From: Escherichia coli
Lineage (GTDB): Bacteria > Pseudomonadota > Gammaproteobacteria > Enterobacterales > Enterobacteriaceae
Length of the DNA: 64,000 nt
Strand: one strand, 5' to 3'
NCBI RefSeq assembly: GCF_044647545.1
Contig: NZ_CP172818.1
The notes under the pieces are model-generated. The model did no database searches. It was not told where the DNA came from and worked only from the letters and a program-made list of their open reading frames with translations. A program made the position numbers and the translations under genes. Shown here in pieces: positions 7,055-56,007 of this stretch (the first letter of the stretch is position 1; each line of letters starts with the position of its first letter).

Positions 7055-7339
7055 ACAAATTCCTTACTGAAAATACTGCGCTGCACTATACGGGGTTAAT
7101 AAAATAAAGCCAGCGATATTTAAGACCGCCGGACGGCTAAAATAAAATTTGCTTAATCTCAATTATCATGCGTTAATAGCTGCGTCGGTTTGAAAGACAG
7201 ACAGCATACAAAGTAGTTTACTAAAGCAGTTCTCATTATCAGGCATTATCCCCTTCTTTTGAGTCTCTCTCCTGAACACTAAGTAGTTTCTGTATTAAAG
7301 CCCTGTTTGCCGAAAGGCCCAAAATGAAGGAAGTAAAAT

Positions 7340-7552
7340 ATGTCTAATAAAATGACTGGTTTAGTAAAATGGTTTAACGCAGATAAAGGTTTTGGCTTTA
7401 TCACTCCTGATGATGGCAGCAAAGACGTTTTCGTCCATTTCACCGCCATCCAGAGCAATGAATTCCGCACGCTGAACGAAAATCAGAAAGTTGAATTTTC
7501 TATTGAGCAGGGGCAACGTGGTCCCGCGGCAGCGAACGTTGTTACGCTCTAA
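7340..7552 (+). CDS. cspG: Cold shock protein CspG
   Basis: 70-aa [29 protein letters not shown]... with long 5' leader as in csp genes. Confidence 0.92.
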
Positions 7553-7751
7553 GGTTGCCGTTATTACTCAACATCTCCATTTCCGCTGTCCATGTTGTCA
7601 TGGTTCACAGTACCGCACATCGGCATTCGATGTGACGGAGCGAAATCCTTTAGGGGCAAAGTGTATTTTTTGTAAATCGACGATGATCACCTTTGATAAC
7701 GTCGCGCTGCAAATACGCACTGAGCATGCGCCGCTGGATTTCACAAAATAA
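7518..7751 (+). CDS. ymcE: Small protein YmcE (Sfa-like); start uncertain, overlaps the cspG 3' end
   Basis: ORF ...[35 protein letters not shown]... ending 7751; start codon choice (GTG 7518) is tentative. Confidence 0.5.
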
Positions 7752-9241: not shown

Positions 9242-9323
9242 GATTTTGCCAGTCCGTTAAGTTGCATACCAAATGCCACTATTCTAGTTGTTCTTAACTG
9301 GCTGATATTGATTCAAATCGCGT

Positions 9324-24211: not shown

Positions 24212-25540
24212 TTATGGCTCCTGATGAATAACTTCTGGCGGTGGAACGTCAACCAACCTTCTGCTTAATAACGCATTGAGTAAAATCGCGCCAAAGGTTG
24301 CTGTACCGATCCCTCCCAACGTAAAACCGCCCAGCGTGAGAGCAAAATCACCCGCGCCCAGCACTAAGGTTACTGCGACCATAATCAAATTACCGTTCTG
24401 GCTTAAATCGACACGGTTTTGTACCCAGATCCTTGCGCCTGCGACGGCAATCAGCCCGAACACAACAATTGATGCACCACCAATCACCGCGGCCGGAATG
24501 GTATGGATCAGCGCGCCAAATTTCGGCGAAAAGCCCAACAGCATGGCGATGACGGCAGCAGCAACAAACACCAGCGTCGAGTAGACTTTGGTCACGGCCA
24601 TCACACCGATATTTTCAGCATAGGTGGTGACGCCGCTACCGCCGACAGAGCCGGAAAGCATCGTTGCCAGACCATCACCGACGAATGCCCGTCCCATATA
24701 CGGATCCATATTGCGTCCGGTCATCCCGGCGACCGCCTTGAGATGGCCTAAGTTTTCCGCCACCAGAATCACCGCCACGGGCGCAATCAGCATCATTGCC
24801 TGACCATTAAAAGCAGGAGTGGAAAAATGTGGCAAACCGAACCAGGCAGCATGGCTGACGAGAGTAAAATCGACGGCTTTTCCCAGCCCTAAAACGTTGG
24901 TCATCACGCCATACAGCAGACAGGCGACAATTAATCCTACGAGAATCAATAACCGCTGGATCATGCCACGGGTAAATACCGCTACCAGCCCAATACACAG
25001 CACCGTCATTACCGCCATCCAGCTATCAAAGGCCGAAGCCGATACACTTTTCACTGCGATAGGCGCTAAGTTCAGGCCAATCGCCATCACCACCGCACCC
25101 GTCACCACCGGCGGCATTAGCCGTTCAATCCAGCGCGTACCGATTTTCATCACCACCAGGCCAATGACGGTATAAACCAGCCCACAGGCGATAATCCCGC
25201 CCAGCGCGATGCTGATATTCGGGTTAATGCCCTGACCGTTAAAGCCCGTCGCGGCAATCACCACGCCGACAAAAGCCGCGCTGGAGCCGAGATAACTGGG
25301 GACGCGCCCGCCGGTAATAAAGAAAAACAGTAACGTGCCGATCCCCGACATCAAAATGGAAAGATTGGGATCCAGCCCCATCAGAATAGGCATTAACACC
25401 GTCGCGCCAAACATCGCCACCGCGTGTTGAACGCCCATTACTGCCGTCTGAGCAAACGGCAATCGTTCATCCGGCGCGACCACGCCGCTCTCTGTAGAGG
25501 TCGATTTTAACTGCCAGTGAGGAAAACCGAACATTGCCAT
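24212..25540 (-). CDS. rutG: Pyrimidine permease RutG (NCS2 family)
   Basis: 442 aa from MAMFGFPHWQLK...; polytopic membrane protein, first gene downstream in the rut cluster. Confidence 0.9.
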   Translation of the reverse strand: MAMFGFPHWQLKSTSTESGVVAPDERLPFAQTAVMGVQHAVAMFGATVLMPILMGLDPNLSILMSGIGTLLFFFITGGRVPSYLGSSAAFVGVVIAATGFNGQGINPNISIALGGIIACGLVYTVIGLVVMKIGTRWIERLMPPVVTGAVVMAIGLNLAPIAVKSVSASAFDSWMAVMTVLCIGLVAVFTRGMIQRLLILVGLIVACLLYGVMTNVLGLGKAVDFTLVSHAAWFGLPHFSTPAFNGQAMMLIAPVAVILVAENLGHLKAVAGMTGRNMDPYMGRAFVGDGLATMLSGSVGGSGVTTYAENIGVMAVTKVYSTLVFVAAAVIAMLLGFSPKFGALIHTIPAAVIGGASIVVFGLIAVAGARIWVQNRVDLSQNGNLIMVAVTLVLGAGDFALTLGGFTLGGIGTATFGAILLNALLSRRLVDVPPPEVIHQEP

Positions 25541-25560
25541 CAGCTGTCTCCTTAAGGAGG

Positions 25561-26055
25561 TTAACAAGCAGGGCGCATCAGCGCGTGATAACTGCGATCA
25601 AACCACACCAGCCCGTAGGGGGTGGCGTGACGATGAATCGCTTCGATGGCGCAAAACAGAATGTCGTGGGTGCCGACGCTCACCACCTGGCTGATACGGC
25701 AGTCAAACGAAACCAGTGCTTCTTCCAGTTGCGGGCATCCGGTCACACCAGTCTGCCAGCGGGCGGCGGCAAAGCGGTGTTCCATGGGCGTTTTGCCGCC
25801 AAAAAGGTTTGAAAGCAGCTCCTGCCCGGCGCTAAGTGTATTTACACACAGCGTTCGATTTTCATTGAATACCGACCAGACGGACGCCCCACGATTCAGG
25901 CACACCAGTAATGTGGGCGGCGTATCGGTCACGCTGCAGACGGCGCTGGCGGTGAACCCGGCGCGCCCGGCTGGACCGTCCGTGGTGATGATATTGACCG
26001 CCGCGCCCATGCAGGACATCGCATCGCGAAAAGTTTGTTGATCGACAATGTTCAT
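25561..26055 (-). CDS. rutF: FMN reductase RutF
   Basis: 164 aa from [14 protein letters not shown]... Confidence 0.88.
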
Positions 26056-26065
26056 AGTTTGCTCC

Positions 26066-26656
26066 TTACAACAGCCCGCAGGCTTCTTCAAAGGACAGAC
26101 GTGGCAGGCGCGCAAAAAGTTTGCTGGAATCGCCATAGCCGATATTAATCAGCAGATTGCTCTTCAGCGTGCTGCCCGCAAAAAAGGCGTCGTCAACGTA
26201 TTGACGGTCAAAGCCCGACATCGGGCCGGTATCCAGCCCGAGCGCACGGCAGGCGACGATCAGATAGGCCGCCTGCATGGAACTGTTGCGAAACGCTGTT
26301 TCTTCGGCAAGTTGTGGGCTGGAGGTAAACCAACTGCGGGCATCGCCGTGAGGAAACAGCTGTGGTAACCGTTCATAAAATTCACTGTCCCAGGCGACGA
26401 TAGCGGTGACGGGCGCGGTCAGGGTTTTTTGCAGATTGCCGCTGGAAAGCGCCGGGCGCAGACGTTCTTTTCCTTCTGGAGTGCGGATAAACACGATCCG
26501 TGCCGGAGAACAGTTAGCTGATGTCGGCCCCCATTTCATCAGGGCATAAATCTCCCGTAACGTCTCATCGCTGACGGGTGTCTCCCGCCAGCCGTTGTGA
26601 GTGCGGGCATCGGTGAACAGGGTGCTAAGCGCACCTGGGCTAACGGCTTCGTTCAT
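26066..26656 (-). CDS. rutE: Malonic semialdehyde reductase RutE (nitroreductase family)
   Basis: 196-aa ORF. Confidence 0.9.
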
Positions 26657-26665
26657 AGCAATTCC

Positions 26666-27466
26666 TTACAGGGCGGCTTCACGGTGATGTAACAGGCTGG
26701 CAAGCCCGTTGAGTAACAGAGCATTAAACGTTTCGGGATCGGTCACGTTGCAGGCGTGTCCGCCATAGCGCATCACCATTTTCTGGCTATCGGGCAGGGC
26801 GGCATGAAGTTCACTGGAACATGCTGTTGGCACCAGAAGATCATCACTGGCGCAGATGATTTGTACCGGGCAGCGGATACGATCCGCATGGTGACTAAAG
26901 TCAGCGCGTTTGAGGGCGTTAAGTCGACGCAGTAAATTATTTTTGCCCTGAAAATGCGCCAGTGCCAGCGCATCTTCTGCCTCAAGGCGAGGTGCGCGGG
27001 CCGCCATCCAGTCGGCGGGATAGAGGAACAATGGCTGAGCTGCCACCCATGCCTGCGCGCCGCCGCTATGTAGTAACTGTTCGCGAACCTGAAAACAGCG
27101 GCGCGTATGGGCGTTTATTCGTAGCCAGCCGTTAACGCTGACCAGCACAGTTACCGACGCGGGATAATCCAGCGCCAGCTGCATTCCCACCAGCGCACCG
27201 AGCGCATGGCCGACCACCGCGTAACGCTCAATCCCTGCGGCTACCAGCGCCTGATGCAGTTCCGCTGCCATCTGGGCGATACTGTAATCTTCTGCCAGCG
27301 TGTCGGGATTATTGCCGGTGCCGCGCTGGTCGTAACAGACTACCTGATACTCCTGCTCCAGCACCGCCAGTTGCGGTAACCAGTAACTGCCGCTACCGCC
27401 AAGACCCGAAATCAACACCACTACGGGCGCATCAGCATAAGGGGGAGGTGAGAGTGAAAGTTTCAT
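26666..27466 (-). CDS. rutD: Aminoacrylate hydrolase RutD (alpha/beta hydrolase)
   Basis: 266 aa from [26 protein letters not shown]... Confidence 0.88.
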
Positions 27467-27473
27467 CGCGACC

Positions 27474-27860
27474 TCACTTGGCGATATGCGCAATTGTGGC
27501 GATTTCCACCAGCGCGTCAGGTTTTACCAGTCCGCACTGAATGCAGAATCGCGCCGGTTTGTCACCCGGGAAAAACTCGGCGTAGATTTCGTTAATCGCG
27601 GCGTAATTTTTCCAGTCGGTAATAAAGATGCTGTTGAAGGTCACATCCGCCATCGAGCCACCCGCCGTCTCGATCACCTTGCGGATGTTTTCCAGAACGT
27701 GGCGGGTTTGCGCCTTTGGGTCATCGGCAAACAGCACGTTATTATGTTGATCAAAAGCCAGCGTACCGGAGACATACACCACGCCATCAGCCAGCGTGCC
27801 GGGAACGAAGGGGGCCAGCGGTGCGCTGCTGCCAGCGGGAATAATTACGGATTTTGGCAT
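27474..27860 (-). CDS. rutC: Aminoacrylate peracid reductase RutC (RidA/YjgF family)
   Basis: 128-aa ORF. Confidence 0.9.
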
Positions 27861-27871
27861 CGTTAAACTCC

Positions 27872-29712
<1,841 letters not shown>

Positions 29713-29740
29713 ATCCTTTTCAGCCGCGTAATGGCTTGTT

Positions 29741-29756
29741 TGCAAAGCGGATGCCA
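29741..29756 (-). promoter_or_regulatory. Sigma-54 promoter of rutA (TGGCAT-N5-TTGCA on minus strand)
   Basis: Reverse complement reads tggcatccgctttgca, matching the -24/-12 consensus TGGCAC-N5-TTGCW, about 30 nt upstream of the rutA start. Confidence 0.75.
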
Positions 29757-29820
29757 GTTTTTAAAAAGCGAATGTTATTAATGTGTTAATGTTTGGTTGT
29801 CTGAAATATCTGGAAAAAAG

Positions 29821-29836
29821 TGGACTAAACGGTCAA
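29821..29836. promoter_or_regulatory. RutR operator-like inverted repeat (tggactaaacggtcaa)
   Basis: Matches the TTGACCAnnTGGTCAA-type RutR box in the rutR-rutA intergenic region. Confidence 0.6.
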
Positions 29837-29942
29837 AACAGTTGCACATAAAACATGCATCCGTGCGCGATGAGAGTGCAGAAGGTCGAGGCCGGGCGGG
29901 GGTTTTGCTATCCTGTTGCCAATCTACAAGAGGGGAGAGCGC

Positions 29943-30581
29943 ATGACGCAAGGCGCAGTGAAAATAACGGGTAAACGTTCGCGCGCAGTAAGCGCGAAGA
30001 AAAAAGCGATTCTTAGCGCAGCACTGGACACTTTTTCACAATTCGGTTTTCACGGCACAAGGCTGGAGCAGATCGCAGAGTTGGCAGGCGTTTCAAAAAC
30101 CAATCTGCTGTATTACTTCCCGTCAAAAGAGGCGCTGTATATAGCCGTACTGCGGCAGATTCTCGATATCTGGCTGGCACCGTTAAAAGCGTTTCGTGAA
30201 GATTTCGCCCCGCTGGCGGCGATCAAAGAATACATCCGTCTGAAGCTGGAAGTTTCCCGCGATTATCCGCAGGCTTCGCGCCTGTTCTGTATGGAGATGC
30301 TGGCAGGCGCGCCGTTGTTAATGGATGAACTGACGGGCGATTTGAAGGCATTAATTGATGAGAAATCCGCGCTGATTGCCGGTTGGGTAAAAAGCGGCAA
30401 ACTCGCGCCGATTGACCCGCAGCATTTGATTTTTATGATTTGGGCTTCCACTCAACATTACGCCGATTTCGCCCCTCAGGTGGAGGCGGTGACAGGCGCG
30501 ACGTTGCGCGATGAGGTATTTTTCAATCAAACGGTTGAAAACGTGCAGCGGATTATTATTGAGGGGATTCGACCACGCTAA
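29943..30581 (+). CDS. rutR: TetR-family repressor RutR
   Basis: 212 aa from MTQGAVKITGKRSR...; N-terminal HTH. Confidence 0.9.
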   Translation: MTQGAVKITGKRSRAVSAKKKAILSAALDTFSQFGFHGTRLEQIAELAGVSKTNLLYYFPSKEALYIAVLRQILDIWLAPLKAFREDFAPLAAIKEYIRLKLEVSRDYPQASRLFCMEMLAGAPLLMDELTGDLKALIDEKSALIAGWVKSGKLAPIDPQHLIFMIWASTQHYADFAPQVEAVTGATLRDEVFFNQTVENVQRIIIEGIRPR

Positions 30582-39989: not shown

Positions 39990-40085
39990 ATATGCCCGAT
40001 GCGCAGGTTTATCGGGCATGAGTTTTGTGCACAAATTATTAATCACTTGTAGGTCGGGTAAGGCGTTCGCGCAGCATCCGGCAAA
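39990..40085. repeat. REP/BIME palindromic units downstream of efeB
   Basis: atgcccgat...atcgggcat inverted repeat and a REP unit tgtaggtcgggtaaggcgttcgcgcagcatccggca. Confidence 0.6.
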
Positions 40086-40609: not shown

Positions 40610-41376
40610 TCAAAGCTCGTCGCGAGGCAAAACGTGTGCTGAGACGGGATTCGCGCAGCCATAAGCAGCGTGAAGAAGAATCGGTCACCTCGCTTGTGCA
40701 GATGAGCGGCGTAGAAGCCATTGGTATGGCCCGCGACAGTCGCGATACTTCGCCCATCCTCGCGCGAAATGAAGCGCAATTGCACTATCTGAAGGCTATT
40801 GAGAGTAAGCAGCTGATATTCGCCACGGGCGAAGCTGGGTGCGGAAAAACCTGGATCAGCGCAGCAAAAGCGGCAGAGGCCCTGATACATAAGGATGTCG
40901 ACAGGATTATCGTCACCCGTCCAGTTCTGCAAGCCGATGAAGATCTTGGCTTCTTACCTGGTGATATCGCAGAAAAGTTTGCTCCCTATTTTCGCCCGGT
41001 CTACGATGTGCTGGTCCGGCGCTTAGGGGCTTCCTTTATGCAGTACTGCCTGCGACCAGAAATAGGGAAGGTGGAAATTGCGCCGTTCGCCTATATGCGT
41101 GGACGTACCTTTGAAAATGCAGTCGTCATTCTTGACGAGGCGCAGAATGTGACTGCCGCGCAAATGAAAATGTTTTTAACCCGCCTCGGGGAGAACGTGA
41201 CGGTTATCGTCAACGGTGATATCACGCAATGCGATTTGCCTCGCGGCGTGTGCTCCGGATTAAGTGACGCGCTGGAACGTTTCGAAGAGGATGAAATGGT
41301 CGGGATCGTCCGATTCGGTAAAGAGGATTGCGTACGTTCGGCACTTTGCCAACGTACGCTACATGCATACAGTTAA
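40588..41376 (+). CDS. phoH: PhoH ATPase core (short form, 262 aa)
   Basis: ATG 40588 MGRQKAVIKARREAK...; Walker A GEAGCGKT; ORF track shows an upstream alternative start at 40453. Confidence 0.85.
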   Translation: MGRQKAVIKARREAKRVLRRDSRSHKQREEESVTSLVQMSGVEAIGMARDSRDTSPILARNEAQLHYLKAIESKQLIFATGEAGCGKTWISAAKAAEALIHKDVDRIIVTRPVLQADEDLGFLPGDIAEKFAPYFRPVYDVLVRRLGASFMQYCLRPEIGKVEIAPFAYMRGRTFENAVVILDEAQNVTAAQMKMFLTRLGENVTVIVNGDITQCDLPRGVCSGLSDALERFEEDEMVGIVRFGKEDCVRSALCQRTLHAYS

Positions 41377-49620: not shown

Positions 49621-49708
49621 TGGCGGTGAGGGGGGGATTCGAACCCCCGATACGTTGCCGTATACACACTTTCCAGGCGTGCTCCTTCAGCCACTCGGAC
49701 ACCTCACC
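49621..49708 (-). tRNA. serX: tRNA-Ser (GGA anticodon)
   Basis: Reverse complement reads GGTGAGGTGTCCGAGTGGCTGAAGGAGCACGCCTGGAAAGTGTGTATACGGCAACGTATCGGGGGTTCGAATCCCCCCCTCACCGCCA with long variable arm and 3' CCA. Confidence 0.93.
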
Positions 49709-55252: not shown

Positions 55253-56007
55253 GATGAAACCCCGCTTTTTTTTATTGATCGCACACCTGACAGCTGCCTC
55301 TAAAATAGAAGCACCAGAAGTACTGACAGATGTTGCACTGCTGTGTGTAGTAATAAATCAGCCCTAAATGGGTAAAATATAAAACTAATGGATTACATCT
55401 GATTTCAATCTAGCCATTACAAATCTTAAATCAAGTGTTAAACATGTAACTAAATGTAACTCGTTATATTGAAATGTTAATCTTAAGGTTTTATTAAGTT
55501 TAGAAATGATAGAAAAGTTGTACATTTGGTTTTTATTGCACAATTTTAAAAAATCATACAAATGGTGCTAACTTGCTAATAATGCATATAAAAAATATTT
55601 CGGTGTAGTCCTTTCGTCATGTAAAACGTTCTTGTTTTTTCTCTACACCTCCTTGGACAATTTTTTACTGCAAAAAGACGAGGTTTGTCACGGCTTGTGC
55701 GCAAGACATATCGCAGCAATCAGCGACGTGCAAGAAGAATGGCTGTCTGGTGATTTTTGATTGCGGAAAACGGAGATTTAAAAGAAAACAAAATATTTTT
55801 TTGCGTAGATAACAGCGTATTTACGTGGGTTTTAATACTTTGGTATGAACAAAAAAAGAAAAATACAACGCGCGGGTGAGTTATTAAAAATATTTCCGCA
55901 GACATACTTTCCATCGTAACGCAGCGTTAACAAAATACAGGTTGCGTTAACAACCAAGTTGAAATGATTTAATTTCTTAAATGTACGACCAGGTCCAGGG
56001 TGACAAC
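55253..56007. promoter_or_regulatory. csgD-csgB divergent intergenic regulatory region (AT-rich, about 750 bp)
   Basis: Long AT-rich non-coding interval between divergent csgDEFG and csgBAC. Confidence 0.8.

Follow-up and report, generated by a model that had tools for sequence, protein, structure and literature searches.

We are highly confident that the interval 29741-29836 of the Escherichia coli window (the whole stretch of DNA that was analysed, 64,000 nucleotides) forms the core of the control region shared by the divergent genes rutA and rutR, a two-input switch that combines NtrC-dependent sigma-54 transcription with the repressor RutR. The first-pass annotation had described this interval as carrying a sigma-54 promoter on the minus strand, consistent with NtrC-dependent rut expression, and a RutR operator further upstream. 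This interpretation was supported by the analysis; the feature was already known, and both exact sequences have been published. The sigma-54 promoter of rutA (rutAp) and the RutR box of the rutA/rutR region were reportedly described earlier by Zimmer 2000, Loh 2006, and Shimada 2007.

Both motifs fall within the 287 bp of E. coli chromosome that separate the divergent genes rutA and rutR. In the list of open reading frames of the window, the region is flanked by rutB and rutA on the minus strand, rutR on the plus strand, and putA on the minus strand. The two genes that face each other across it are as follows.

Positions 28564-29655, minus strand: rutA coding sequence (PGAP), encoding pyrimidine monooxygenase, the first gene of rutABCDEFG (24212-29655)
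Positions 29943-30581, plus strand: rutR coding sequence (PGAP), encoding a TetR-family repressor of 212 aa

A 601-bp query across the region matched in 5,421 of the 5,426 complete E. coli genomes, several of them with 100% identity. The comparison with E. coli K-12 returned the same locus, with an identical sigma-54 17-mer, RutR 16-mer, pair of NtrC-like dyads, and rutR-proximal 130 bp; the strain-level SNPs were confined to the AT-rich spacer 29762-29815, plus one RutR residue (T8I). Seven of the approximately 5,424 matching places were located on plasmid records, and in one of these, an assembly of EDL933 (NZ_CP124742.1), the record is a 212-kb 'plasmid unnamed1'. The plasmid placement of rutA/rutR there may result from misassembly or mislabelling. 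In another genome (NZ_CP033850.1), which is identical to the window at the rutA/rutR region, torS is annotated as a frameshifted pseudogene at 9311-12054.

For the comparative data set, RutA (363 aa) was used as a query and provided 80 loci, one per species, comprising 79 from Enterobacterales and one from Pseudomonas. The rutR gene was divergent from rutA in 77 of the 80. The scan for the sigma-54 motif covered 80 sequences, namely the window and 79 usable loci. In addition, the whole intergenic region of 26 genus-level representatives was aligned with MAFFT (alignment A2), with a mean column identity of 45%.

The promoter and its predicted start are located on the rutA strand.

Positions 29741-29756, minus strand: sigma-54 core promoter rutAp, TGGCATCCGCTTTGCA, with the -24 element TGGCA at 29756-29752 and the -12 element TTGCA at 29745-29741
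Position 29730, minus strand: predicted rutA transcription start (+1), placed by sigma-54 geometry 12 nt downstream of the C in the -12 GC

The minus strand reads ...AAAACTGGCATCCGCTTTGCAAAC..., and the TGGCAT-N5-TTGCA element proposed by the first-pass annotation was present in it as TGGCAT-CCGCT-TTGCA at 29756..29741. Against TGGCAC-N5-TTGCW, with the GG and GC doublets 10 bp apart, rutAp agreed at 10 of the 11 specified positions, and it spans -26 to -11 relative to the predicted +1. Occupancy by sigma-54 in vivo has been demonstrated at this very element, as CTGGCATCCGCTTTGCA is the ChIP-seq peak OS10, reported on the minus strand for the gene rutA with a PSSM score of 9.96 (Bonocora et al. 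2015, PMC4591121). The same study predicted the same start, 18 bp from the K-12 start codon, and gave the EcoCyc status of the promoter in 2015 as 'predicted', not confirmed. The RpoN holoenzyme also bound the rutA/rutR spacer in genomic SELEX, with 71% in the absence of NtrC and 73% in its presence (Shimada et al. 2021, PMC8743547). Our literature search found neither a mapped rutA start site nor a report on the rpoN-dependence of rutA transcription. A second sigma-54 ChIP site near rut, OA02, which was assigned to rutR (PMC4591121), was absent from the window even at 2 mismatches.

The operator lies further upstream of rutA.

Positions 29821-29836, plus-strand reading TGGACTAAACGGTCAA: RutR operator (RutR box), with its centre at -98.5 from the predicted rutAp +1 and 114.5 bp upstream of the rutR ATG

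The sequence TGGACTAAACGGTCAA matched the RutR consensus TTGACCAnnTGGTCAA at 11 of 14 positions in either orientation, including the critical A4 and T13. It is the RutR site published with the same 11/14 score as '-114.5, intergenic (rutA)', where binding was documented by a uracil-sensitive ChIP-chip signal plus EMSA (Shimada et al. 2008, PMC2475637). We reproduced the published offset of -114.5 as the rutR ATG minus the box centre (29943 - 29828.5). Four substitutions in the box (operator-constitutive) abolished the uracil-sensitive autoregulation of rutR, for which the box is thus required; the same work located it a little past the start of rutR transcription and, as seen from rutA, on the upstream side of the sigma-54 promoter (Nguyen Le Minh et al. 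2015, PMC4325133). Binding of RutR to boxrutA was further demonstrated by EMSA/ITC by Kremer et al. 2024, who also summarised the rutAG promoter architecture, including NtrC sites and the RutR site. The first-pass annotation had called the site an inverted repeat. The sequence was found where it had been placed, but its symmetry was overstated, as 4 of 8 pairs are complementary and only TTGACC is a good half-site, the other (TGGACT) being degenerate. Other RutR sites are likewise semi-palindromic (PMC2475637).

Two NtrC-like dyads, which were an omission of the first-pass annotation, lie just upstream of the RutR box.

Positions 29843-29859: proximal NtrC-like dyad, TGCATGTTTTATGTGCA (rutA sense), centre -121, 9/13 to TGCACCN4TGGTGCA
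Positions 29864-29880: distal NtrC-like dyad, TGCACTCTCATCGCGCA (rutA sense), centre -142, 10/13 to TGCACCN4TGGTGCA

These dyads (29843-29880) are the putative NtrC sites that would make rutAp NtrC-dependent. Since they are 21 bp apart, equivalent to two helical turns, they would be exposed on the same helical face. Both dyads were invariant in E. coli. Across the 26 genera, the terminal TGC and GTGCA of the proximal dyad were invariant or nearly so, and the TGCAC and GCA ends of the distal dyad were conserved. In a logo anchored on the RutR box, the dyads were blurred by +/-1 bp offsets. NtrC-dependent sigma-54 expression of rut, as originally proposed, is supported by this conservation, by the sigma-54 ChIP-seq data (PMC4591121), and by NtrC ChIP-seq in nitrogen-starved cells, in which a 94-fold peak was obtained at ycdMLKJIHG (= rutABCDEFG) (Brown et al. 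2014, PMC4066584).

The NtrC ChIP-seq peak at rut is among the strongest (PMC4066584, Table 1), whereas the rutA/rutR spacer is not on the list of the NtrC-only genomic SELEX at the 40% cut-off, in which glnA and glnH were reported (PMC8743547, Table 2). This contrast may mean that the dyads bind NtrC weakly by themselves and depend on cooperativity or on assistance from the holoenzyme.

A further element was recognised between the RutR box and the -24 element.

Positions 29776-29788, plus strand: IHF-like site TATTAATGTGTTA, 8/9 to WATCAANNNNTTR, centre approximately -52

The best IHF-like match occurred at the same position (-52/-55) in approximately 61 of the 79 loci. The score was at least 8/9 in 59 of 79 loci, compared with 17.5% of shuffled spacers, and the match was perfect in 7 loci from several genera. 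The block was conserved in A2 and overlaps the predicted rutR promoter. Judged from the sequence, IHF may have a role near -52; a literature search for IHF at the rutA promoter found nothing. As far as we found, the IHF-like block and the conserved leader module described below are apparently unreported before.

Upstream of the rutA start codon, the columns of A2 that were invariant or at least 90% identical were mostly found in five places.

First place: TGGCA and TTGC of the -24/-12 element
Second place: TTnACC and GTC of the RutR box
Third place: TGCAC...GCA and TGC...GTGCA of the two 17-bp dyads just upstream of the RutR box
Fourth place: a TTAACA...T..T block between the RutR box and the sigma-54 promoter
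Fifth place: a ATAGCAAA block near rutR

The pattern TGGCAY-N5-TTGCW was found upstream of rutA in 79 of the 80 sequences, with a freely varying N5 and at 40-130 nt from the conserved rutA start; only the Pseudomonas locus was without it. The TGGCA and TTGC columns were invariant in the 26 genera and in seven diverse E. coli strains. The half-sites TTnACC and GTC of the RutR box were likewise invariant across the 26 genera, with the box at a fixed offset. In the seven E. coli strains, the sigma-54 element, the RutR box, and both dyads were identical, except for two single-base changes in KMi012, one in the N5 spacer and one at the end base of the RutR box. Approximately 20 polymorphic sites crowded the AT-rich spacer 29762-29815 of these strains, and a handful were found in the 130 bp on the rutR side. 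The offsets of the elements (-98/-121/-142) were fixed in Enterobacteriaceae and were approximately 9 bp further out in Erwiniaceae and Yersiniaceae. Because of this clear phylogenetic footprint across loci, both the sigma-54 motif and the RutR box stand well above chance.

A second RutR-like box, TTGGACCAnnnnCTCAA, was observed in Erwiniaceae and Yersiniaceae directly on the promoter side of the first, and the enhancer is approximately 9 bp farther from the promoter. Examples are found in columns 232-268 of A2 in Serratia plymuthica (L071), Erwinia psidii (L030), and the locus L066.

In the mechanism that we propose, RNA polymerase with sigma-54 would wait on the minus strand of 29741-29756 as a closed complex. 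It would fire only when phosphorylated NtrC on the dyads at -121/-142 contacts the polymerase by DNA looping, and the IHF-like bend near -52 would probably aid the formation of the loop. Transcription would then proceed from near 29730, through a leader of approximately 75 nt, into rutABCDEFG. A uracil-free RutR dimer would occupy the single box, 6 bp from the proximal dyad and between the enhancer and the bend. From this one box, RutR would repress both units, including the adjacent sigma-70 rutR promoter; its release by uracil has been shown in published experiments. RutR at the box may hinder the assembly of the NtrC oligomer or the looping. Under such dual control by phosphorylated NtrC and RutR, the operon would need two signals, nitrogen limitation and pyrimidine (uracil), as in an AND gate.

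The main alternative is that the RutR box serves essentially the autoregulation of rutR only, with rutABCDEFG under NtrC/sigma-54 alone and an indirect effect of RutR on rutA. The site-directed evidence on the box indeed concerns rutR autoregulation (PMC4325133), and the box is approximately 98 bp from the rutA start, yet a few bp from the predicted rutR start. Additionally, in exponential LB culture, the deletion of rutR caused no rise in rutA mRNA, which was also unchanged by RutR K52 acetylation (Kremer et al. 2024). With this result, the documentation for a direct repression of rutAp by RutR is poorer than that for autoregulation. However, the LB experiment was carried out without NtrC activation, so derepression could not show; no rise in rutA is expected if phosphorylated NtrC is absent. 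RutR has been described as the rutAG repressor (PMC2475637, PMC4325133, Kremer et al. 2024). The spacing of box, dyad, and promoter is fixed across three families, which suggests that selection is tied to the rutA side too, and Erwiniaceae and Yersiniaceae carry the extra RutR-like box. Because of the conserved spacing, we consider a box devoted to autoregulation unlikely and retain the two-input switch.

The distance between promoter and gene depends on which of two start codons is taken for rutA.

Positions 29653-29655, minus strand: conserved rutA start codon (PGAP), opening M-K-I-G-V... (MKIGVF...) in the 363-aa RutA
Positions 29710-29712, minus strand: legacy K-12 rutA start (NC_000913.3 annotation), opening MQDAAPRL... 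in the 382-aa form

The first-pass annotation had placed the sigma-54 element about 30 nt upstream of rutA. This holds for the K-12 start, as the -12 element is 28 nt from ATG 29712, but not for the conserved ATG 29655, from which it is separated by 85 nt. With the conserved start at ATG 29655, the leader would be approximately 75 nt long. The K-12 annotation would instead give a RutA of 382 aa from ATG 29712, an 18-nt leader, and a leader module that is coding sequence. It is followed by NC_000913.3 and by the crystal construct 5WAN, which used the long form, and the extended frame is open in the window. Against it, ATGAAA with GAGG 6-8 nt upstream was found in 80 of 80 loci, and many loci, one of them from E. 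coli (L003, 6 codons), had an in-frame stop 1-10 codons before the conserved ATG. Neither the upstream ATG nor the N-terminal extension was conserved across loci, and the AAGGA that precedes ATG 29712 sits just 1 nt from it. The PGAP call is 363 aa, and short forms (363/364 aa) were crystallised in 6SGG and 6SGL, with the 363-aa protein folded in 6SGG. From these sequence comparisons, the K-12 RefSeq rutA start is probably too far upstream and adds a spurious 19-residue extension; we consider it very unlikely that the K-12 annotation is right.

Taking the conserved start, the transcript would begin with the following leader.

Positions 29656-29729, minus strand: predicted rutA 5' leader of approximately 75 nt, with the Shine-Dalgarno sequence GAGAGG upstream of ATG 29655
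Positions 29692-29729, minus strand: leader module of approximately 38 nt, with the GC-rich arms ACGCGGC and GCCCCGT around the invariant core GCAGGAUGC (29710-29702)

The leader module, which is the stretch translated in K-12 as the N-terminal extension of RutA, was present in 59 of the 79 leaders; lineages with short leaders, such as the Enterobacter hormaechei group and Buttiauxella, show a clean deletion of it. A permissive Rfam scan of 29600-29960 resulted in a chance-level match alone (E = 7), with no Rfam match for the leader module. The minimum free energy of the E. coli leader was no better than that of shuffles (z = +1.2), and RNAalifold on the leaders returned a 2-bp invariant closure of the AGGAU loop only. 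A hand-drawn 7-bp outer stem was 81% paired, had four pairs with double changes, and beat slid controls; as it was drawn from the same sequences, we left it unexplained, and we regard the covariation evidence for a stem as weak. The module was rejected as a repeated or mobile element, with one copy per E. coli genome and a weak look-alike at 40068 that has 3 mismatches. A uORF was rejected as well, given that the ATG of the module lacks conservation. A tentative reading, to which we assign a low probability, is that the module is a post-transcriptional control element and not neutral leader or coding sequence; it could be, for example, a GGA-loop hairpin recognised by CsrA or another RNA-binding protein, or an sRNA target. 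A literature search for a link to CsrA found nothing relevant.

At the Rfam gathering threshold, the scan of the whole window placed no family in the rutA/rutR intergenic region. Unrelated families were found elsewhere in the window, comprising a cspA-type thermoregulator (the cspG leader) at 7184-7606, naRNA4 at 18288-18366, Ysr251 (antisense, within the phoH coding region) at 41178-41371, a tRNA at 49624-49708, and ES056 at 55309-55400.

On the rutR side, two candidate hexamers were placed by eye, and one block stood out by its conservation.

Positions 29778-29783, plus strand: possible rutR -35 hexamer TTAATG, by eye
Positions 29802-29807, plus strand: candidate sigma-70 rutR -10 hexamer TGAAAT (TAAAAT in K-12), by eye, low confidence
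Positions 29904-29911, plus strand: conserved 8-bp block TTTGCTAT, 32 nt upstream of the rutR ATG

The scan with the sigma-70 consensus for a rutR promoter gave no match in the window or in K-12, and for this reason confidence in the two hexamers is low. Their position fits a RutR box located shortly downstream of the rutR start site (PMC4325133). One of the spacer SNPs alters the candidate -10, which reads TGAAAT in the window and TAAAAT in K-12. The TTTGCTAT block was conserved like the known sites, with A42 and A49 invariant and T43, A44, C46, A47, and A48 at 90% or above in the 26 genera. Speculatively, it is possibly the extended -10 (TGcTATcct) of a proximal or second rutR promoter, or another binding site. 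The IHF-like block at -52 and the TTTGCTAT block could both be unrecognised parts of the rut switch.

The weakest alternative, that both motifs arose by chance in AT-rich intergenic DNA and regulate nothing, draws on their frequency in the window. Although rutAp was the sole exact TGGCAYN5TTGCW match in the 64 kb, 0.43 were expected by chance, and 36 of 100 shuffled windows carried at least one. Matches to TTGACCAnnTGGTCAA at up to 3 mismatches occurred at the chance rate (3 in the window versus 2.6 expected). Neither match was compelling by itself in the window, so the case was built on position, orientation, and conservation. Functional positions were kept across 79 loci while the flanks and N5 diverged, and in vivo occupancy is on record for sigma-54, NtrC, and RutR (PMC4591121, PMC4066584, PMC2475637). 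Together, conservation and the ChIP data already refute the chance reading, which retains practically no probability.

Among known systems, glnAp2 and glnHp2 combine a -24/-12 core with tandem NtrC dyads approximately 110-150 bp upstream, on the same helical face, and are activated by looping. In the glnHp2 type, an AT-rich or IHF-like bend lies between the NtrC dyads and the core. By analogy, rutAp would resemble these promoters in its core, tandem dyads, looping, and, as in the glnHp2 type, intervening bend. It differs from them in that a TetR-family repressor site is located between the enhancer and the bend, and a divergent sigma-70 promoter shares the same spacer. Both glnAp2 and glnHp2 are listed as confirmed sigma-54 promoters (PMC4591121).

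The RutR box of carAB P1, TTGACCATTTGGTCCA, and the rut box bind the same protein through a 16-bp motif with A4 and T13, and binding is uracil-sensitive at both (PMC2475637). However, the carAB box scores 13/14, is situated a long way upstream, at -184.5, and has a positive effect through antagonism of PepA, whereas the rut box scores 11/14 and acts negatively (PMC2475637, PMC4325133, Kremer et al. 2024). As in repressors of the TetR/QacR type, RutR is a dimeric helix-turn-helix repressor that is released by a small ligand and whose gene is divergent from the regulated operon. Unlike TetR/QacR-type operators, which overlap promoters, the rut box is approximately 98 bp upstream and clear of the rutA -24/-12 (or -35/-10) elements. 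Simple promoter occlusion, therefore, cannot explain the repression of rutA.

For the rut system, the analysis indicates that the two-input switch is recoverable from raw sequence, and the biology of the switch itself gains nothing from it. As by-products, it provided comparative evidence against the K-12 rutA start, with a promoter-to-start distance of approximately 85 nt, and a conserved rutA leader module. The footprint fixes the NtrC dyads, the IHF-like site, and the RutR box in three enterobacterial families, and it frames the question of how a TetR-type repressor bound approximately 98 bp upstream blocks an enhancer-dependent promoter.
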